A stretch of DNA of 64,000 bases. Origin: Bacillota bacterium. GTDB taxonomy: Bacteria > Bacillota > Clostridia > Christensenellales > UBA1242. Shown one piece after another: positions 21,987 to 61,201 of this stretch. Below the pieces are notes generated by a model that did not search any database, was not told the DNA's origin, and saw nothing but the letters and a program-made list of their open reading frames with translations. The stretch is taken from NCBI GenBank assembly GCA_009780065.1, contig WRAS01000005.1, positions 7,013 through 71,012 on the forward strand, given 5' to 3'. Within the stretch, counting starts at the first letter, position 1. The number at the start of each line of letters is the position of its first letter. The position numbers and the translations under genes were made by a program.

Positions 21987-22235
21987 ATGGAAACAATAAG
22001 AGATAACGATTTCCCAGACATGACCATTATGGATGGGAAAATTGTTCCGACAGGTTTTGCGGCAGGGATGAACAAATTAAGTGGATCACTTCAAAACCAG
22101 ACAAATCTTCCAGAACAAACAAAATCTGGGATGACAGCAGAATTCTCACAAGGTATTCCACAGGATATTCTCGCATATTTAAGAGGCGCAACACAACAAG
22201 CAACAATCGCAGAAGATATCGAGCGAGGAAGTTAA
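21987..22235 (+). CDS. Small hypothetical protein
   Basis: 82-aa ORF with SD GGAGG, followed by a terminator. Confidence 0.5.
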   Translation: METIRDNDFPDMTIMDGKIVPTGFAAGMNKLSGSLQNQTNLPEQTKSGMTAEFSQGIPQDILAYLRGATQQATIAEDIERGS

Positions 22236-34060: not shown

Positions 34061-35641
34061 ATGAACCAAAAGATTGCAGACCTTATTTTTCCAAGTGCTA
34101 AGCCAACGGATTATTGGACCCAGAAATATCCCGTGAGAAAAACAAATGCGTTTAGATATGCACCCAGTCCAACTGGTTATTTGCATGTAGGCGGGCTTGG
34201 AATGGCCTTGGCGTGTCGTTTTCTTGCCACCAATAACAAAGGAATATTATTTCTGCGTGTCGAGGACACCGACCAAAAAAGAGAAATAGAAGGGGCAACA
34301 GAACTCCTTGTAGCAGCCTTAGATGAATTTGGAATTACATTTGACGAAGGATTTGATGGCAAAAAGAACAAAGGAAAATATGCACCATACAGACAAAGCG
34401 ACCGAACAGAAATTTATCAAGCATTTGCAAAAAAACTTTTGATAGATGGAAATGCATACCCATGCTTTTGCAGTGCGGAGGACATCACAAAAATCCGTGA
34501 AGAACAAGCAGGGAAAAAGCAAGAAATTGGCTATCATGGTAAATATGCAAGATGTGCAGGGCTGTCAGTTGAAGAGATTGAAAAACTTGTCAAGGATAAA
34601 AAAGAATTTGTTATAAGATTTAACCCAGACAAAACGCGAGAAGTAGAACGTATAGAATGGAACGATGACATACGCGGAAAGATGTCATTACCCGCAATTA
34701 ATAACCATCCTGTGATAATTAAGTCTAATGGACTGCCGCCATATAATTTTGCCCATGTTGTGGATGACTTTTTAATGGGAACGTCACATGTCTTGCGGGG
34801 CGAAGAATGGCTGCCATCTACCGCGGAACATATTCAAATAGCAGAAGCCACATTGGGTGCAATAACATGGTCTTATGGACACATGCCGGTAATTACGATT
34901 ATGGATGATGGTGGCAAACGAAAATTGTCCAAACGAAAAGATAAATGTGCACTTGCAGATAATTTGTTGCAAGAAGGGTATCCAAAACAAGCGGTCATTG
35001 AATATCTTTTAACGCTGTATAATGGTGACTTTGAGAAATGGCGGTTGCAAAACCCGGATGCGGGGTATACACAATTTAACTTTAGATTTGAAAAGATTGG
35101 TACCAATAACCCATTATTTGATATTAAAAAGTTGGAACATATATCGCGCGAAATAATTTCCAAAAAAACCAAGAAGCAAATCAACGATGCGGTAACAGAA
35201 TATCTGGCAAAATACAACCCCCAGTCCAGAGGTGTTATGGAAAAGATATTTGGGATCCTTGCCATTGACCGTGAATCACCAAAACCGCGAAAAGATATCG
35301 CCAAATACAGTGAAATATTAACCGAGTATGATTATATGATAACCCGTCCGAATATATCTGTAGACAGAGGACAACAGACAATAGCATTAGAATTTTTGCA
35401 GACATTCAACATAAAAGATGATAGGGAAACATGGTTTGAAAAAATTAAAGTAGTTGCAAAGAAATTGGGGTATGCCGATAATATGAAAGACTATAAAAAC
35501 AATCCCGCCGCATACAAAGGCAGCATCGGCGACGTCACACAATCAATCAGACTAATGGTAACTGGAAAACCTAACACACCAGACCTGTATGAAATCATGA
35601 AGGTATTGGGCAACGACGAGGTTCGAACTAGGCTGAAATAA
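34061..35641 (+). CDS. gltX: Glutamate--tRNA ligase
   Basis: FRYAPSPTGYLHVGG is the HIGH-type region and KLSKRK is the KMSKS-type motif. 526 aa. TGG-TATCAT (-10 at 34049-34054) lies 6 nt before the ATG. Confidence 0.9.
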   Translation: MNQKIADLIFPSAKPTDYWTQKYPVRKTNAFRYAPSPTGYLHVGGLGMALACRFLATNNKGILFLRVEDTDQKREIEGATELLVAALDEFGITFDEGFDGKKNKGKYAPYRQSDRTEIYQAFAKKLLIDGNAYPCFCSAEDITKIREEQAGKKQEIGYHGKYARCAGLSVEEIEKLVKDKKEFVIRFNPDKTREVERIEWNDDIRGKMSLPAINNHPVIIKSNGLPPYNFAHVVDDFLMGTSHVLRGEEWLPSTAEHIQIAEATLGAITWSYGHMPVITIMDDGGKRKLSKRKDKCALADNLLQEGYPKQAVIEYLLTLYNGDFEKWRLQNPDAGYTQFNFRFEKIGTNNPLFDIKKLEHISREIISKKTKKQINDAVTEYLAKYNPQSRGVMEKIFGILAIDRESPKPRKDIAKYSEILTEYDYMITRPNISVDRGQQTIALEFLQTFNIKDDRETWFEKIKVVAKKLGYADNMKDYKNNPAAYKGSIGDVTQSIRLMVTGKPNTPDLYEIMKVLGNDEVRTRLK

Positions 35642-35708: not shown

Positions 35709-36170
35709 ATGGAATTTATTAAAAAGAATGGTGCGAAAATTGTAATTGCTGCAATTGCACTTACGGGACTTGTTTTGATGTTGATATATTTATTTAGTAT
35801 CAACCAATTACCAGAAGCCTTTCAACCGGACTTCATGGGATTAACAATGGTGATTGGATACGCCATATTCTTTGCTGGTGTGGTTGCGGTATGTGTATGT
35901 AGCATTCTGAACGTATGCAAATGTATTCGTGGATGGATTTTGTTGGTGGTGGGTGTTCTTGTTACCACATTTATGTCACTTGCGTTGGCGGATACAATTC
36001 AAAACTGGGAACATGTTTACCGTCCATTTGGAACACCACAACATCTTCCGGCGGAAGACACCTGGGCAAAGTTTGTAATATTCCCGGTCGTGGTTCAATT
36101 GTTCGTGTTTGGTCTATTCCCACTGGTAAAGGGTGCAAAGAAACTGCTTTGTTCTAAAAAAGAAGATTAA
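35709..36170 (+). CDS. Hypothetical four-helix membrane protein
   Basis: 153 aa, hydrophobic. SD AGGAG. Confidence 0.6.
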   Translation: MEFIKKNGAKIVIAAIALTGLVLMLIYLFSINQLPEAFQPDFMGLTMVIGYAIFFAGVVAVCVCSILNVCKCIRGWILLVVGVLVTTFMSLALADTIQNWEHVYRPFGTPQHLPAEDTWAKFVIFPVVVQLFVFGLFPLVKGAKKLLCSKKED

Positions 36171-36189
36171 TATTAACAAACTAAAAAGG

Positions 36190-36226
36190 AACCCATCTTG
36201 ACAAAAGGTGGGTTTTTTGGTATATT
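36190..36226 (+). promoter_or_regulatory. Terminator hairpin of 35709..36170 overlapping a promoter TTGACA-17-TATATT
   Basis: AACCCA (36190-36195) pairs with TGGGTT (36209-36214), followed by a T-run. TTGACA at 36198-36203 and TGG-TATATT at 36218-36226. Confidence 0.5.
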
Positions 36227-36441
36227 GTGTAATGAATATATGCAAAAAACTAAATTTTCAAAGTATCTAGAAGCACATAACTATCAGGAGGATCCAGACA
36301 TTCTTCGTAATTAGAAAGATTCAAAGAATTCTGTCGAGATTTTCGCGACAACCAATTTTAACCGTTGAACATATAATGTAATGACAGTCTCTGTTTACAT
36401 ATCATTCCAAACAGGGAAGATATGTTAAGAGGAGGATATTT

Positions 36442-36576
36442 ATGTCATTACTTGCTGGGCTTGCCATTGGTGGTCTTTGGGGATGTTGTGCGTGTGGACA
36501 TCGTCACGACCGTTGTGAACGCCGTCGACACCATGATTGTTGCCACAGACATTGCTGCCACTGTTGTTGCTGGTAA
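36442..36576 (+). CDS. Unannotated 44-codon Cys/His-rich peptide MSLLAGLAIGGLWGCCACGHRHDRCERRRHHDCCHRHCCHCCCW
   Basis: Below the ORF-track cutoff and in a different frame from the listed 36422..36682 ORF. Perfect SD AGGAGG (36430-36435) lies 6 nt before the ATG. TAA stop, followed 7 nt later by a strong terminator. Contains 11 Cys and 7 His. Confidence 0.6.
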   Translation: MSLLAGLAIGGLWGCCACGHRHDRCERRRHHDCCHRHCCHCCCW

Positions 36577-36582
36577 AGTTTT

Positions 36583-36612
36583 AAAAAAAGCCGAGGTTAT
36601 TCTCGGCTTTTT
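36583..36612. terminator. Bidirectional intrinsic terminator
   Basis: An A-run, GCCGAG-GTTATT-CTCGGC, then a T-run. It serves the peptide gene and the convergent 36633..37298 gene. Confidence 0.8.
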
Positions 36613-36632
36613 AAATAGCAACTTTGGTATGA

Positions 36633-37298
36633 TTATGCCTCTACAAGTTGTTTTGCCTCATTCTCGATTTCTACGGATATAACATCTTCGGTAACTGGGC
36701 TGGTGTCTTGTTTTGGTTTTTCTGGCTTTGTCTTTGTTGTTGGCTTCTCTTGTATTGGTTCTGGGCGAGTTTGTTTATTTTCTTTGAATGAAACTAGTTT
36801 CAGTTCCAATGTCTTGAATTCAAAGCCAAGCGCTTGTTTGTATTCGTCCGTCAGGGCTTTGTTGACCTTGTCCATAACTATGCCTGCTTTAATCTCTTGT
36901 TCGTCGTCTGCTTTTATTTTAATTGCGGCTTTCATAATAACTTCGTTATTGCTGTCCACGAACAAATGTATGTGTTTTATCTTCGCGTGCTCGATCCCGG
37001 CAACCGCTTTCTTTGCCAGTTTACGAATAACCCCCACAGATGCGTTTAAGATGCTATCTTTGGTTTTGAACAGTAGGATTTGCTTAATCTTTTCGCGCTC
37101 GGAAAATGCGGACCAAACATTTACCGTAACCAATGCAATAAATATCAATGCAAATATACCAAACAATGAATGTACCACGCCGTTATTGGCCTCCACCGCA
37201 ACATCTGTATTCAAAATCAGCACAAGCGTAAACACAACAAAAATCAACGCCATGACCGCCATCGATATAGCAACCATTTTTTCGAAACCTTTTTTCAT
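36633..37298 (-). CDS. Asp23/AmaP-like (alkaline-shock family) membrane-anchored protein, tentative
   Basis: Two N-terminal TM helices are followed by an Asp23-like pattern: IEHAKIKHIHLFVDSNNEVIMKAAIKIKADDEQEIKAGIVMDKVNKALTDEYKQALGFEFKTLELKLVSF. The start is taken at the ATG after GGAGG. Confidence 0.45.
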   Translation of the reverse strand: MKKGFEKMVAISMAVMALIFVVFTLVLILNTDVAVEANNGVVHSLFGIFALIFIALVTVNVWSAFSEREKIKQILLFKTKDSILNASVGVIRKLAKKAVAGIEHAKIKHIHLFVDSNNEVIMKAAIKIKADDEQEIKAGIVMDKVNKALTDEYKQALGFEFKTLELKLVSFKENKQTRPEPIQEKPTTKTKPEKPKQDTSPVTEDVISVEIENEAKQLVEA

Positions 37299-37479
37299 AT
37301 AAACCTCCAATCAAATTATAACATACATGATACACCCAACGCAAAATAAAATGACCACCTAGACCCTAGTGGGTCCAGGGGTCACCCCTGGTGGCGGAGA
37401 GCAGGTGTTCTAAATTGAACCAAGATTATGATCTTGTAATCATTGTTAATGGTGTTGCTGGGATAATTGTGTATATAAA

Positions 37480-38097
37480 TTAGTTGTAGTCATATTCTTG
37501 GTCTGCACCATATAACATTTTGGCTTCCGAAATAGCACTTGATTTTATAGCATGATCAGGCATGTTTAGATATTGCTGGAAATATTTCTTGAGAAAGAGC
37601 ATGGAATATTCGATTGCATCGGACTCTCGCAGTTGGGTCACTCTAGGCCAATATTGTTGATTTTGGTAGATATGTCGCAATTCATGTGGCACCCATTTCT
37701 TCATGTAACTTGCAGGGGTAAAGCCATCGTCCCAAATCCTGAAAAGTACATCATTACTACCTTCAAGCACAACTCCACCCCATCCTCTCATCCAATTAGG
37801 AGGTGGATTCTGCATTGTTGCTAACAATACTGTCGGCTTGGGATCTAAGGACAAATCTCTACAAGAACCTTCACTTAAAGCACGAATTGTATTTAATTTT
37901 CTGCCATAACTGAAATCCTTGTCAAATTCTTTTTCGGCTTTAAAGATTGCCACTGAATCCTCAAAGCAAAATTCTTGCGACTCTTCTGTATCAAAAATTG
38001 AAAATACTTCATTGCATGCTGCAATCTCTGCTTTAGGCATAGACCCTTTGTAAATATCAAAGTAATTATCCAGCTTTACAAGACCTTTATATTCCAT
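37480..38097 (-). CDS. Hypothetical protein with an HExxH motif (possible zinc metallopeptidase)
   Basis: 205 aa, KKWVPHELRHIYQNQ. TGATATAAT (-10 at 38108-38103) lies 5 nt before the ATG, with no SD. Confidence 0.5.
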   Translation of the reverse strand: MEYKGLVKLDNYFDIYKGSMPKAEIAACNEVFSIFDTEESQEFCFEDSVAIFKAEKEFDKDFSYGRKLNTIRALSEGSCRDLSLDPKPTVLLATMQNPPPNWMRGWGGVVLEGSNDVLFRIWDDGFTPASYMKKWVPHELRHIYQNQQYWPRVTQLRESDAIEYSMLFLKKYFQQYLNMPDHAIKSSAISEAKMLYGADQEYDYN

Positions 38098-38201
38098 CGT
38101 AAATTATATCATTTATGTTTTTCATTTTCAAGACTCGAGTGAAAATGATGCAAAAACAAAAGCGATCCAACCCGAACCAAGAGTTCAAATTAGACCGCAG
38201 T

Positions 38202-38293
38202 TGGCGGAGAGTACTGGATTCGAACCAGTGACCAGCTTTTGACCGGTGCCTTCTTAGCAGGAAGGTGGTTTAGACCAACTCACCCAACTCTCC
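38202..38293 (-). tRNA. tRNA-Ser (anticodon GCU), CCA encoded
   Basis: The minus strand reads GGAGAGTTGGGTGAGTTGGTCTAAACCACCTTCCTGCTAAGAAGGCACCGGTCAAAAGCTGGTCACTGGTTCGAATCCAGTACTCTCCGCCA. The acceptor stem is GGAGAGT/ACTCTCC, the anticodon stem-loop is CCTTC-CTGCTAA-GAAGG, and there is a long variable arm and a GGTTCGAATCC T-arm. Confidence 0.9.
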
Positions 38294-38351
38294 AAACAAT
38301 ATATTATACATATTTATTAACAATTTGGCAAGTTTTAATTTTGGTGCAAAA

Positions 38352-38380
38352 AGAAAAAAAGCCGCTCAGACGGCTTTTAT
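38352..38380 (-). terminator. Intrinsic terminator after 38385..39398
   Basis: GCCG-TCTGAG-CGGC hairpin followed by a T-run on the minus strand. Confidence 0.7.
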
Positions 38381-38384
38381 TTTT

Positions 38385-39398
38385 TTAATCTTGGTCTCTT
38401 GTTCTTCGTGATTCTGATGTATTTCCCACCGCTTCTTGTTCTTTGTCCTCTAAGATAGATAATACACTGCGCCCTATTTCTTCCAAATTTCGGATAGTTG
38501 TTCTTGGTGTCTCTGTTCGTTCAGATTTTTCGGCGTGTTTGTTTTGTATATTTCTCTCGGCTATGTGTGCTGCAGACAAATGACTAGAAGGTGCTTGGAT
38601 ATTTCGCTCTGCTATATGTGCTGCGGATAAATTTCCAGACGGGGCGGTATCCTCTGATTCAATTCGATTCGCTTCTCTGAAGGCCACGGCTGGATTTCTG
38701 GAGGGTTCAGATGCTCGCAAAGCCGATCTTTCTTCTGCTCGCATTGTTTCGTATGTTTCAAAAAGACGGTAGACCCAATTTGTTGTTCTGTCGTAAACGT
38801 TTACCCAGTCGCTGATATGCCCGCCTTGGCGTTGCAAATCCCATAAACAATTTCCATTTTCATCAAACAACCATACATGTCCATCTCTCATTTCCACATA
38901 CGCGGTACGATTACCAATACATGCAAGAGGAGACGAACCTACACGAATTGAACCCGGGATAAATGTGTCGCCCTGTGTTTGAGTCGTATCGGTTAGAACT
39001 GTATCGTTAGTTTGAACTGCGTCGTTTTGTGCTTCCAGAATTCTTTGGATGGCTTCTTCTTTTGTTTCTAGAATACTTTGTACAGTCTGTGACATCCCAG
39101 TTGATCCAACATCGGGTTTATCAAGATTTTCTAACTTGTCCACTGCAGGTATTTCTAAACCGCCTGGTCTTGCAACCTGAAAGCCCTCTTTGGTGGCAAG
39201 GAGAGTGTCTTGTGTCTCTTCTGCATGCTTTATTTTGTGTTCATATTGTGAACCTGTTGCAGCAGCATCACTGTCTCCGGAAAGCAAAACTGCACCTGTA
39301 CCACCGCCAATGGCAAGGAGAGTCAACGCCGCCGCAGCCTTCTTTTGCTTGCTAGTTAATATAGGATCTTTTGCATAGTATGATTTTTTCTTTGCCAT
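38385..39398 (-). CDS. Hypothetical membrane-anchored protein with a short tandem repeat
   Basis: 337 aa. SD GGAGG. N-terminal anchor AAALTLLAIGGGTGAVLL. LSAAHIAERNIQ occurs twice in tandem near the C-terminus. Confidence 0.6.
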   Translation of the reverse strand: MAKKKSYYAKDPILTSKQKKAAAALTLLAIGGGTGAVLLSGDSDAAATGSQYEHKIKHAEETQDTLLATKEGFQVARPGGLEIPAVDKLENLDKPDVGSTGMSQTVQSILETKEEAIQRILEAQNDAVQTNDTVLTDTTQTQGDTFIPGSIRVGSSPLACIGNRTAYVEMRDGHVWLFDENGNCLWDLQRQGGHISDWVNVYDRTTNWVYRLFETYETMRAEERSALRASEPSRNPAVAFREANRIESEDTAPSGNLSAAHIAERNIQAPSSHLSAAHIAERNIQNKHAEKSERTETPRTTIRNLEEIGRSVLSILEDKEQEAVGNTSESRRTRDQD

Positions 39399-39436
39399 AA
39401 AACCTCCAATAGATAAAAAGTTTGTGTAAATAAGTT

Positions 39437-39928
39437 TTAATCACGCTCAACTTCCGCGCCGATGGTGGGATCATTAGCCGGATTTTTATAAAAGGGTTCA
39501 ATGTTCTTTGTATCTCTTGTGGTTTCTGTTTCTGATTTGTAACCCACTTTGAAATCTCCTAAACGGGCGTGTTGCTTTTGAATTTCGCACACATCTTCTT
39601 TTTCACAGGCTTTTTGGCCATGCTCGACTGCTTCGTTTGCTATTTCTGATTGTGCATATTCTGCTTCTGCGATGAAATGATCATTAAACATCTTTTGTAC
39701 ATTTTTTGGAAGTAATTCAAATTTGGAAGCAATTGCTACTGCTGTTGCCTGTTGTGGTGCAACACGTTTTAAATTCAAGTCAGAATTGCCTGGTGACATT
39801 TTATAGTCAGGGCTCTTAAATGGTATCCGAGATTTTGTACGCAGCAAATCTAATATATCGTTTGCGATTTCTTTGTCTTTGGGATCTTTTATTAAGGTAA
39901 CCTTTTTTTCAAGTTCTTTTAGTTTCAT
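39437..39928 (-). CDS. Hypothetical protein
   Basis: 163-aa ORF with SD AGGAG. Confidence 0.55.
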   Translation of the reverse strand: MKLKELEKKVTLIKDPKDKEIANDILDLLRTKSRIPFKSPDYKMSPGNSDLNLKRVAPQQATAVAIASKFELLPKNVQKMFNDHFIAEAEYAQSEIANEAVEHGQKACEKEDVCEIQKQHARLGDFKVGYKSETETTRDTKNIEPFYKNPANDPTIGAEVERD

Positions 39929-40062
39929 TGAAGTTCTCCTTTGTATTATTCTAAATTTATACTAATTATATATTAAATTGTGCATTCCCGTCAATGAATA
40001 TATATACCGCAACAGTATCATAAATATTTTGTTAACTTTGTTACAACGTGATAAACTATGAC

Positions 40063-40968
40063 ATGAAAATCTACGGAGACTACCACACGCATTCTGAATT
40101 TTCGCGCGATGGAACTGCAACTATTGATGCCATGGTTAAAACCGCGAAAGAAATTGGATTGCACGAAATTGCAATAACAGATCACGGGTCACGTGCGTTT
40201 ATTAACGGGTGCAAGACCAAGAATTATAAACATATACGCGCCCTAATAGATAAAGCCAAACAAGAATATGGAATTCCCGTATATTTCGGGGTGGAGGCCA
40301 ATTTGACAGGGCGAAACGGGCAAATTGATGTTGCCGAGGATTTTCGTCGTGACATAGACATTTTATTGTGCGGAATTCATCCAGGGGTTTGGCCGGCAAA
40401 ATTCTGGGATATTTTTACATTTTTGATTCCCAATTACTTTTGTTTTATTTTCAGATGGTTTCCAAAAAGCCGAGTTCGCCGAAATACCCACGCTATGATT
40501 AATGCAATTGAAAAGAATGATATAGACATTTGGACACACCCAAACAGATACTTTAAACTGAATGTATTGGAGGTTGCAAAAACATGTGTCGAGCGGGGTA
40601 CGTTGATAGAATTGAACGGAAAACAGGGGATTAACTTTCGTCCCATAGATTTCGAAAGAATGTTAGAAGTCGGTGCAAAATTCGTAATAAACAGTGACGC
40701 ACACAGAACCAAAGACGTCGGTCAAATAGACAGGGTGACCGAGTTTTTGAAAAACTGTGACTGGCAGGAGAGTGATATTGTAAACCTGCATGGTCCATTA
40801 AAACGTGAATCACATGTTTTGGAAAAAATAATTGAAGAACACCAAATTGATGGCGAAACGAATATTATCCAAGACGAAATTTTTACAATTGATAAGAAAG
40901 AACAAAAGCGTCTTGCAAAGGAACAGAAAAAACGCGAAAAAGAAATCAGGAAAAAAGCAATTAATTAA
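40063..40968 (+). CDS. PHP-domain (histidinol-phosphatase-like) metal-dependent phosphoesterase
   Basis: MKIYGDYHTHSEFSRDGTATIDAMVKTAKEIGLHEIAITDHG is the PHP motif. The start is chosen at the ATG 5 nt after TG-A-TAAACT (40052-40057). Confidence 0.8.
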   Translation: MKIYGDYHTHSEFSRDGTATIDAMVKTAKEIGLHEIAITDHGSRAFINGCKTKNYKHIRALIDKAKQEYGIPVYFGVEANLTGRNGQIDVAEDFRRDIDILLCGIHPGVWPAKFWDIFTFLIPNYFCFIFRWFPKSRVRRNTHAMINAIEKNDIDIWTHPNRYFKLNVLEVAKTCVERGTLIELNGKQGINFRPIDFERMLEVGAKFVINSDAHRTKDVGQIDRVTEFLKNCDWQESDIVNLHGPLKRESHVLEKIIEEHQIDGETNIIQDEIFTIDKKEQKRLAKEQKKREKEIRKKAIN

Positions 40969-41549
40969 TGAGCATAATCAACAAAGCAAAACACGAAATC
41001 CAAAAGAAATCCTACAGCGACCAGGACGCGGCTTCGGTTGCAAATACGTTTTATTATAATGCAAGTGGTTCTGTGACCAAAGGTTACCATGTGGAATTTT
41101 CTTTTGATAATTATGATACGGCAAAGGATTTTAGCGAAACATTGGCGGCTTATGATATGTTTCCCAAGTTGATGGAAAGGAATGAAAAAGTATTTGTATA
41201 TTTAAAGAGTGGCGAGTGTTTGTGTAATCTGCTGGCACTTATTGGTGCGGGCAATGCGTTGATGGATTTGCATAATGAGATTGCCTTGCGAACCGTACGA
41301 AATAATGCAAACCGTGCCGCCAATTGTGATACAGCCAATATTCAAAAGCAAATTGATGCCGCCAAACACCAAATAGAATTCATAACTAATCTTGCACAAA
41401 GCGGTGCGTTGGGCCGGTTGTCACCAAAGTTACAAGAAACCGCACTAGCGCGTTTGGATAACCCAGATGCCAGTTACGATGAGTTGGCAAAGATTCTTTG
41501 TATAACCAAAAGCGGTATAGTTAACCGTTTAAAAAAAATTATGGAGTAG
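40968..41549 (+). CDS. whiA: WhiA-like DNA-binding protein, short form (second LAGLIDADG-like domain plus HTH; N-terminal ~110 aa of canonical WhiA absent)
   Basis: LLALIGAGNALMDLHNEIALRTVRNNANRAANCDTANIQKQIDAAKHQIEFI...YDELAKILCITKSGIVNRLKKI matches the conserved WhiA core and C-terminal HTH. Confidence 0.75.
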   Translation: MSIINKAKHEIQKKSYSDQDAASVANTFYYNASGSVTKGYHVEFSFDNYDTAKDFSETLAAYDMFPKLMERNEKVFVYLKSGECLCNLLALIGAGNALMDLHNEIALRTVRNNANRAANCDTANIQKQIDAAKHQIEFITNLAQSGALGRLSPKLQETALARLDNPDASYDELAKILCITKSGIVNRLKKIME

Positions 41550-56290: not shown

Positions 56291-56473
56291 TCAAGGCAGG
56301 GTATCCGCCAGGGATGGTCCAATTGAACTAAGCAATACCGATGCACCAAACCCAATACAAATCAGCAGCGCAGTAATTAAAAAAAGCGCAAACGGACGAC
56401 TTTTCCGTTGGCGCTTTTGTTTCCATCGTGGTGATATATCGGGCTCAGGCTTGTAATTTATACCATCGTCCAT
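56291..56473 (-). CDS. Small hypothetical single-pass membrane protein
   Basis: 60 aa. SD AGGGAGA lies 9 nt upstream. RPFALFLITALLICIGFGASVLL helix. Confidence 0.45.
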   Translation of the reverse strand: MDDGINYKPEPDISPRWKQKRQRKSRPFALFLITALLICIGFGASVLLSSIGPSLADTLP

Positions 56474-57949: not shown

Positions 57950-58348
57950 ATGAAAATTCTAAAATCAATAGGTTTATTGTCGGTGCTTTTGGTGGTTTCG
58001 CTCGTGCTTATTGCGTGTGGTGGTAATGGTAATAATGGCAAAATACCAGACCCCGGCGGTAAATTTTGCTACGAAACTATTATTGTGAGTTTGACCGTAT
58101 CGGCATCTGCTCTCGACAGGACTTGGGTGCCTGCTGATTTTCTTCCAGAGGTGGTGTTAGGTGAAGTCAGTGTGCTTATGACACCTGCCCCACCCATAAA
58201 TCGTTTAACACTACTTTTAACATTGGGAAATTCGGGGAGAGATAATGTGTTGAAGGCAGTGTATGCGCTTAATCAAAGAAGTGATGTGTATCGTGCGAAT
58301 TTGAACATTTACGATACCATCCAATATACAAAAAAAGGAGAACTATGA
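57950..58348 (+). CDS. Putative lipoprotein
   Basis: MKILKSIGLLSVLLVVSLVLIACGG contains a lipobox (LIAC). SD AAGGAGG. Confidence 0.65.
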   Translation: MKILKSIGLLSVLLVVSLVLIACGGNGNNGKIPDPGGKFCYETIIVSLTVSASALDRTWVPADFLPEVVLGEVSVLMTPAPPINRLTLLLTLGNSGRDNVLKAVYALNQRSDVYRANLNIYDTIQYTKKGEL

Positions 58349-58458
58349 AAAAGATAATTTGTTTTGGATTAGTAGTTTGTATTATGGTGGTATGCCTTGT
58401 TGTTCCAACCAACATAAACATCCAACCAAGGGTTTCGGCGGTTGCTTCATTGAGTTGA
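58345..58458 (+). CDS. 37-codon ORF encoding only a signal peptide; probable detached 5' end of the S8 protease gene
   Basis: MKKIICFGLVVCIMVVCLVVPTNINIQPRVSAVASLS then TGA. SD AAAGGAG. The frame is offset by one from 58466..60661. Confidence 0.5.
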   Translation: MKKIICFGLVVCIMVVCLVVPTNINIQPRVSAVASLS

Positions 58459-61003: not shown

Positions 61004-61201
61004 ATGACATTCGGAGAAACAATCCAAGGTGAAGACCACCCAACATTCAAAGAGGTAATTCAAGATGAAGTAACAAAACTAACCCGCGTTATTCAACACT
61101 TGCTAGGGCTAAAAGAACAGGAGCAAACGGGGCAGGCACAGGGACAAGAAACTCCCCCTGTGGTTAAAGAGCCTGAATTCGACGGGCGCGGACTTGCGTA
61201 A
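61004..61201 (+). CDS. Small acidic hypothetical protein
   Basis: 65 aa. SD AAAGGAG. Followed by a terminator. Confidence 0.5.
   Translation: MTFGETIQGEDHPTFKEVIQDEVTKLTRVIQHLLGLKEQEQTGQAQGQETPPVVKEPEFDGRGLA

Follow-up and report, generated by a model that had tools for sequence, protein, structure and literature searches.

Bacterial metallothioneins (SmtA/BmtA, Pfam Metallothio_Pro; MymT of Mycobacterium) are short Cys(+His)-rich peptides whose thiolate clusters buffer Zn, Cd or Cu. Vicinal Cys residues next to His serve as a metal-binding grammar in metallothioneins and in the SlyD tail, and vicinal Cys pairs are also used at a helix end by MerF and MerT. In MerF/MerT/MerE and CupA, such pairs stand at the cytoplasmic end of the helix and pass thiophilic metals to partners; CupA, a copper metallochaperone, is anchored by a single N-terminal membrane pass. 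Other short peptides of Bacillota include the type I toxins (Fst, TxpA, BsrG and the CD-toxins of C. difficile), SR1P, a Cys-rich 39-aa peptide encoded in the small RNA of the dual-function system SR1/SR1P, and the members of TIGR01732, which we take to be the YjcZ or 'tiny TM' sporulation peptide family of Bacillota. Hpn is dominated by poly-His, with 28 of its 60 residues being His and few being Cys. Hpn and Hpn-2, from gastric Helicobacter, bind Ni; both are small, biased in composition and furnished with -CC- motifs, and this motif is important in Hpn (PMC4671568). Both are routinely overlooked by annotators or supplanted by longer ORFs in other frames (PMC4671568).

A peptide of comparable bias is predicted in the 64,000-nt stretch of termite-gut metagenome DNA analysed here (the window), where an intergenic gap of 462 nt between two convergent genes contains a complete small expression unit. 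Its features and those of its flanks are as follows.

35709-36170 (+): upstream gene for a 153-aa membrane protein, from the ORF list
36186-36218 (+): terminator-like hairpin closing the 153-aa gene, 14 pairs followed by TTTTTT, its loop containing the -35 hexamer (inverted repeat I1)
36198-36226 (+): putative sigma-A/sigma-70-type promoter, TTGACA-17-TATATT with a TG extended -10, 11/12 positions in the promoter scan
36233-36441 (+): inferred 5' untranslated leader of about 210 nt, with no recognisable regulatory RNA in Rfam, folding and pairing tests
36378-36451 (+): structures near the ribosome-binding site, a 9-nt perfect inverted repeat and an imperfect hairpin, within chance (I8, I4, I16)
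36430-36435 (+): Shine-Dalgarno (SD) sequence AGGAGG, extended form AAGAGGAGG, with a 6-nt spacer to the ATG at 36442
36442-36576 (+): 44-codon ORF with its TAA, from translation, composition and codon statistics
36422-36682 (+): overlapping 86-aa ORF, frame +1 relative to the 44-aa ORF, from ENA's gene caller
36585-36612 (both strands): bidirectional intrinsic terminator made of an A-tract, a GCCGAG stem and a T-tract (I5, fold, alignments to terminator stems)
36633-37310 (-): convergent gene for a 225-aa protein, whose ORF ends at 36633

Transcription and translation signals

A first-pass annotation of this DNA had proposed an unannotated, discrete unit made of promoter, SD sequence, ORF and terminator, and all four signals were recovered: the promoter with its 17-nt spacer and extended -10, the AGGAGG 6 nt 5' of the ATG, and the strong bidirectional terminator soon after the TAA. 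Taken together, these signals support the unit, whose size and bias are probably too extreme for gene callers. Promoter-like sites of at least 11/12 are enriched about 6-fold in the window (16 observed, against 2.8 +/- 1.8 in shuffles), and comparison of their positions with the ORF list and the tRNA/Rfam results places most of them closely 5' of a gene, a tRNA or the L10 leader, so that a site of this quality is usually a real promoter in this organism. The transcription start of the 44-codon unit would lie near 36233. At the level of translation, the SD/anti-SD duplex for the ATG at 36442 (-11.9 kcal/mol) is the strongest among the 1255 plus-strand ATGs in the window. AGGAGG is present in 12 copies in the window, 5 of which have an ATG 4-10 nt downstream; three of these five pairs begin long ORFs (780, 159 and 132 aa), one is antisense within a 1218-aa gene, and the remaining one belongs to the 44-codon ORF.

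The terminator starts 8 nt past the stop of the 44-codon ORF and is common to the convergent 225-aa gene. Its arms (36585-36595 and 36602-36612) are 11 nt long and perfectly complementary, and because the hairpin has an A-tract at one flank and a T-tract at the opposite one, it can serve both convergent transcripts. A simple terminator scan missed it, probably since the A and T tracts pair with each other and lengthen the stem. The weak Rfam matches in the region are all to terminator hairpins of sRNA models. As a separate observation, a 33-nt element combining terminator hairpin and promoter (36191-36223) recurs with one mismatch on another contig (6.3 kb, higher depth) from the same termite-gut metagenomes, where a TATTAT-like -10 and AAGGAG come after it; this may point to reuse of a terminator/promoter cassette or to a small repeat.

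The leader had been thought to fit a riboswitch or a metal-responsive element on account of two hairpins. Both hairpins exist (I4, I16), and an imperfect one at 36391-36431 abuts the SD, but neither exceeds what shuffled sequences yield. The cmscan that had been suggested as a check was run with Rfam 15 on 36227-36441 (E<=10, permissive filters) and gave no family, only noise at 17-18 bits against gathering scores of 55-95; a gathering-threshold Rfam scan of the whole window detected only three tRNAs and the L10 leader. The fold energy of the leader is ordinary (z = -1.15), with 27 of 200 shuffles folding equally well. Base pairing takes up most of the SD core and of the start-codon TG in the ensemble (the SD is unpaired with a probability of 0.31, the ATG with one of 0.35), and part of it is due to the 9-nt perfect repeat GTAATGACA (36378-86) / TGTCATTAC (36443-51), which covers the TG. 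However, these values rank 9th for the SD and 23rd for the ATG among 47 genes of the window, and 13% of shuffled leaders match both values. Because the same pairing is seen in other genes and in shuffled leaders, a riboswitch or metal-sensing leader is not supported, although one of an undescribed class is conceivable, and any regulation is more likely to act at the promoter than in the leader.

Other elements of the leader were also recorded. A second perfect AGGAGG (36286-36291) lacks a possible start codon (ATG, GTG or TTG) at 4-10 nt. Between two flanking segments, ACATAACTATC (36275-85) and GATATTTATGT (36435-45), complementarity is 91% (I6). The -10/start region ATATTGTGTAATGA (36222-35) recurs at 36371-84 as ATATAATGTAATGA, giving a perfect TATAAT without a -35.

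The predicted peptide and its reading frame

Translation of 36442-36576 gives MSLLAGLAIGGLWGCCACGHRHDRCERRRHHDCCHRHCCHCCCW, ending at the TAA and identical to the earlier translation, which had rightly been described as a Cys/His-rich 44-codon ORF with a hydrophobic N-terminus. Of the 44 residues, 11 are Cys, 7 His and 6 Arg. Cys and His together make up 15 positions of the densest 25-aa stretch, compared with 12 and 10 in the runner-up stop-free segments of the window and with a maximum of 10 in about 214 kb of related loci, a density that is thus unique in both sets. Residues 1-19 (MSLLAGLAIGGLWGCCACG) are hydrophobic and Gly-rich, with a borderline Kyte-Doolittle mean of 1.62 and two overlapping GxxxG motifs (G6-G10 and G10-G14); more than half of the peptide consists of polar Cys, His and Arg. 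Residues 20-44 (HRHDRCERRRHHDCCHRHCCHCCCW) make up a tail rich in Cys, His and Arg; among its 25 residues are 8 Cys and 7 His, with three vicinal motifs (CCH, CCH and CCC), and its net charge is +3, to which the 7 His are additional. Over the whole translation, Cys pairs occur in the contexts GCCAC, DCCHRH, HCCH and CCCW, and the longest His run is of 2 residues. The single-sequence AlphaFold2 model is unconfident (pLDDT 55). The peptide contains a lipobox-like string, L-W-G-C, which lacks any Lys or Arg ahead of it and is followed by six Arg shortly past its Cys; with the positive n-region absent and Trp at position -2 of the string, a bacterial lipoprotein signal peptide was rejected.

Gene callers have treated this stretch differently: the ENA annotation calls the off-frame 86-aa ORF and JGI calls nothing there. 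That the 86-aa ORF is the real gene and the Cys/His frame its off-frame shadow draws on a codon log-odds model, for which 48 long ORFs of the window served as training set and in which whole codons give the 86-aa frame +7.0, a value typical of real genes (7.3 +/- 4.1), and the 44-aa frame -11.1. Moreover, proteins rich in Val, Ala, Thr and Asp are far commoner than Cys/His-rich ones, and 'CCHCCCW'-like strings do occur as short stop-free, start-less fragments in viral contigs. The whole-codon preference for the +1 frame results, however, from TGY and CAY codons that, shifted by one base, are read as common Val, Ala and Thr codons. When only synonymous choice is scored, the 44-aa frame reaches +2.5 and the +1 frame -1.7, against 1.1 +/- 1.9 for real genes and -1.5 +/- 2.2 for off-frames, which suggests a modest preference for the peptide frame (likelihood ratio of about 14:1). 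Codon choice for Cys, His and Arg in the 44-aa frame tracks the preference of the genome, whereas the Ala codons of the 86-aa frame shun the genome-preferred GCA. The SD of the 86-aa ORF is weak and mis-spaced, GGGAAG lying only 2 nt before its ATG (-4.9 kcal/mol, equalled or bettered by 13% of all ATGs), and the ORF runs through the perfect intrinsic terminator, its last 50 nt lying within the convergent gene. It has no match in Pfam, PHROG or PADLOC. Altogether, synonymous codon usage, ribosome-binding-site strength and terminator position favour the 44-aa frame. Selection on the 36422-36682 frame, which the first-pass annotation had named among the findings that would speak against the small ORF, was not apparent, but codon statistics do not cleanly exclude that frame either; taking all of this together, we regard the 86-aa ORF as hardly credible as the real gene.

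Relatives and genomic neighbourhood

Homology searches of the kind proposed earlier (tblastn, HMM) gave no relative of the peptide among proteins, plasmids or phages. No homologue was returned by exact-sequence lookup, by word-index search of 5.8 billion proteins, by phmmer against 1.84 billion representative proteins, by PHROGs and PADLOC, or by tblastn against plasmids and phages, and no described family of this type was found in the literature. Pfam and NCBIfam scans (E<=1) gave 0 families and a PDB phmmer search (E<=10) gave 0 matches; Metallothio_Pro membership was rejected on these results, as was membership in the TIGR01732 family on the NCBIfam scan. A degenerate DNA pattern for CCHCCCW-stop matched viral contigs 17 times, but all matches were short stop-free fragments (10-33 aa, no start codon) without likeness to the rest of the peptide, several being the same conserved phage stretch, and they were set aside as off-frame strings, not homologues. 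The peptide falls outside every tested family (metallothionein, Hpn, Rfam leaders, RiPP precursor models and tiny-TM). Since the BLAST low-complexity filter and the HMMER bias filter may mask weak compositional relatives, missing homologues are only weakly informative for a biased query of 44 residues.

The position of the host was approached through GltX (526 aa, 34061-35641, +), whose gene adjoins the locus. Its nearest relative, at 59% identity, is found in a Bacillota MAG that comes from the same termite samples; identity to the GltX of a Christensenellaceae MAG is 50%. The closest relatives are all termite or insect-gut Bacillota MAGs, one of them mislabelled as the beetle Holotrichia oblita, and scans of GTDB representative genomes and of metagenome contigs gave only proteins 22-32% identical. 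The host lineage seems to branch deeply and to have no member among the GTDB representatives scanned. In six fetched relatives of the GltX locus, synteny ends straight after gltX, and none of these loci carries a Cys/His-rich sORF. The locus itself was found in only two termite-gut DNA runs, each copy being 100% identical; two further runs of the same study are without it, and no RNA run contains it. The upstream 153-aa gene has a single homologue (47% identity), in another termite-gut genome, where a V-ATPase gene comes 55 nt after and no Cys/His sORF lies beside it.

The Pfam content of the window between 22 and 55 kb consists of housekeeping and orphan genes only. As had been remarked before, modification enzymes are lacking nearby: in this interval, no RiPP maturase (radical SAM/SPASM, YcaO, lanthipeptide synthetase LanB/C/M, MNIO/DUF692) and no C39-peptidase ABC transporter was detected. 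There is likewise no metal-homeostasis gene, metal-sensing regulator or metal riboswitch near the 44-codon ORF. The ORF lies within a run of orphan genes at 35709-39928 (153 aa, the sORF, 225, 205, 337 and 163 aa) around a tRNA-Ser (38202-38293); the run has no Pfam, NCBIfam or PADLOC match and marginal PHROG matches only, and because its G+C is normal (about 0.39) it is not obviously foreign.

Several genes of the neighbourhood have features of their own. The 153-aa protein (p153) is a multi-pass (4-TM) protein with four Cys (C62, C64, C70, C72; 'CVCSILNVCKC'), at which positions its sole known homologue (L014 7943-8488) has Ile, Val, Ile and Ser; with two genomes compared, the Cys cluster of p153 and the Cys/His sORF may have arisen together. 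The 205-aa orphan protein (37480-38097, -) contains an HExxH string (VPHELRHIY) and may be an uncharacterised zinc metallopeptidase. Further along, 40048-41549 encodes a PHP-domain protein followed by a short (187-193 aa) WhiA-like protein with only the LAGLIDADG_WhiA and HTH_WhiA domains, a pair that is conserved in a related termite-gut genome (L014 3266-4691). Elsewhere in the window, four other intergenic ORFs of 37-82 codons have a strong SD (<= -8.5 kcal/mol), namely 21987-22235 (+), 56291-56473 (-), 58345-58458 (+) and 61004-61201 (+), and are possibly further unannotated small genes; among them, the 37-aa ORF encodes a hydrophobic, signal- or TM-like peptide.

Possible functions and comparison with known systems

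From its sequence, the 44-codon unit is a well-formed candidate for a stand-alone, lineage-restricted small gene, and we consider the gene probably real. Its function is more tentative; the reading that we favour, at somewhat less than even confidence, is that of a membrane-tethered micro-protein for metal buffering or hand-off, resembling Hpn and metallothioneins. Residues 1-19 would form one membrane helix of the GxxxG type in an N-out/C-in topology. By the positive-inside rule, the +3 charge of the tail would place it on the cytoplasmic side, where the reducing milieu would keep its thiols reduced. The Cys/His tail would then be a ligand for soft or borderline metals such as Ni, Zn, Co, Cu or Cd, which helix-associated copies may share in clusters, and the peptide would act as a tethered buffer or as a hand-off peptide, in the manner of Hpn, metallothioneins and the tails of HspA and SlyD. 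A metal micro-protein is favoured because Hpn and the HspA tail use the same metal-binding grammar of vicinal Cys beside His. Counting against this reading are the missing homologues, the lack of a nearby metal gene, the low pLDDT, the whole-codon score of -11.1, a hydrophobic stretch of borderline length for a membrane helix and the missing sORF next to the one homologue of the upstream gene. It could also be hypothesized, as a long shot, that the peptide founds a class not described so far, in which single GxxxG helices oligomerise so that their tails jointly build a multinuclear cluster of metal (or of an Fe-S-like kind) on the inner face of the membrane, maybe together with p153.

Other readings of the same unit were weighed. 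A small RNA of about 380 nt, whose ORF is incidental or not productively translated or makes up one half of an SR1/SR1P-type dual-function RNA, would agree with the discrete unit bounded by promoter and terminator, with the 210 nt that precede the ORF and have no coding role, and with a peptide conserved nowhere. The full transcript also folds better than shuffles (z = -3.3), but much of this value is due to the terminator, as the leader (z = -1.15) and the ORF region (z = +0.27) indicate, and there is no Rfam family match. Without translation, one would hardly expect an SD duplex of -11.9 kcal/mol with ideal spacing and a stop 8 nt ahead of the terminator, and synonymous codon usage suits a coding frame; we judge this reading unlikely. 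Quite improbable is a membrane-active peptide of the type I toxin kind, the translation of which would be checked by the long 5' UTR and/or by an antisense RNA. The short length, the hydrophobic N-terminus and the cationic C-terminus of the peptide would suit it, as would the long 5' UTR, the bidirectional terminator, the mostly paired SD core and start-codon TG and the setting of orphan genes beside a tRNA-Ser. Two weak minus-strand promoter-like sites (36428->36401 and 36382->36355) could yield a leader antisense RNA, but they reach only 9/12 and occur at chance rate (6 found, 4.9 expected). The pairing of the SD and ATG is, as seen above, no greater than in other genes or in shuffled leaders, the hydrophobic segment is short, and neither repeated copies nor a PADLOC or PHROG match was found. 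To our knowledge, a tail that is more than half Cys and His is not a feature of type I toxins.

A precursor of an exported or modified peptide has still slimmer chances, whether as a RiPP (ranthipeptide, sactipeptide or thiol-derived, chalkophore-like), as a double-glycine bacteriocin cut after LAIGG, or through a lipoprotein-type cut between LWG and C. Several RiPP classes typically have a Cys-rich core at the C-terminus, and both 'IGG' and an L-x-G-C string occur in the sequence. However, neither a maturase nor a C39-peptidase ABC transporter was found at 22-55 kb of the window, no NCBIfam precursor model matches (E<=1), the leader peptide would have merely 11-14 residues without a positive n-region, and the six Arg right behind the putative cleavage site disfavour Sec export.

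If the 44-codon gene is real, it originates from an uncultured, deep-branching termite-gut lineage of Bacillota and would be, like Hpn, another compositionally extreme micro-protein that gene callers miss or swap for an off-frame ORF. Its value is limited by its being a single-genome orphan with no link to any pathway. Among known systems, the type I toxins resemble it in layout, with a stand-alone sORF, a long 5' UTR, a bidirectional terminator, a hydrophobic N-terminus and a cationic C-terminus, but these toxins are not known to be Cys/His-rich, and neither an antisense RNA promoter nor an SD-sequestering structure beyond chance was found for the 44-codon unit. MerF/MerT/MerE and CupA are larger than the predicted peptide and show no homology to it; they are encoded in mer or cop operons with regulators and have one or two Cys pairs. 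Metallothioneins are largely unstructured without metal, with which the low-confidence AlphaFold2 model of the peptide is consistent. Unlike the predicted peptide, however, they are soluble and have no membrane segment, and its Cys spacing (CC, CxC, CCC) and Arg content differ from theirs.

The likeness to Hpn extends to both composition and annotation history. Hpn, Hpn-2 and the HspA tail share an extreme bias and vicinal -CC- next to His (PMC4671568), and the 44-aa peptide has such -CC- motifs as well. These proteins bind Ni, Zn, Co, Cu and Bi, form multimers and are restricted to one lineage (PMC4671568). Annotations of Hpn have been replaced by a longer off-frame ORF (PMC4671568), as in the 86-aa call made by ENA here. 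On the other hand, neither word search nor phmmer found sequence homology between the two; poly-His is absent from the peptide, whose His runs do not exceed 2 residues, and it has more Cys than His, many Arg and a predicted hydrophobic N-terminal anchor, with no Ni enzyme or regulator nearby. Hpn, in contrast to the predicted peptide, is soluble and NikR-regulated. Altogether, a real 44-codon gene would be closest in kind to the metal binders of the Hpn and metallothionein type, yet membrane-anchored and richer in Cys than in His, and it would give the small set of Cys/His-rich peptides that buffer metals in bacteria a membrane-anchored member.
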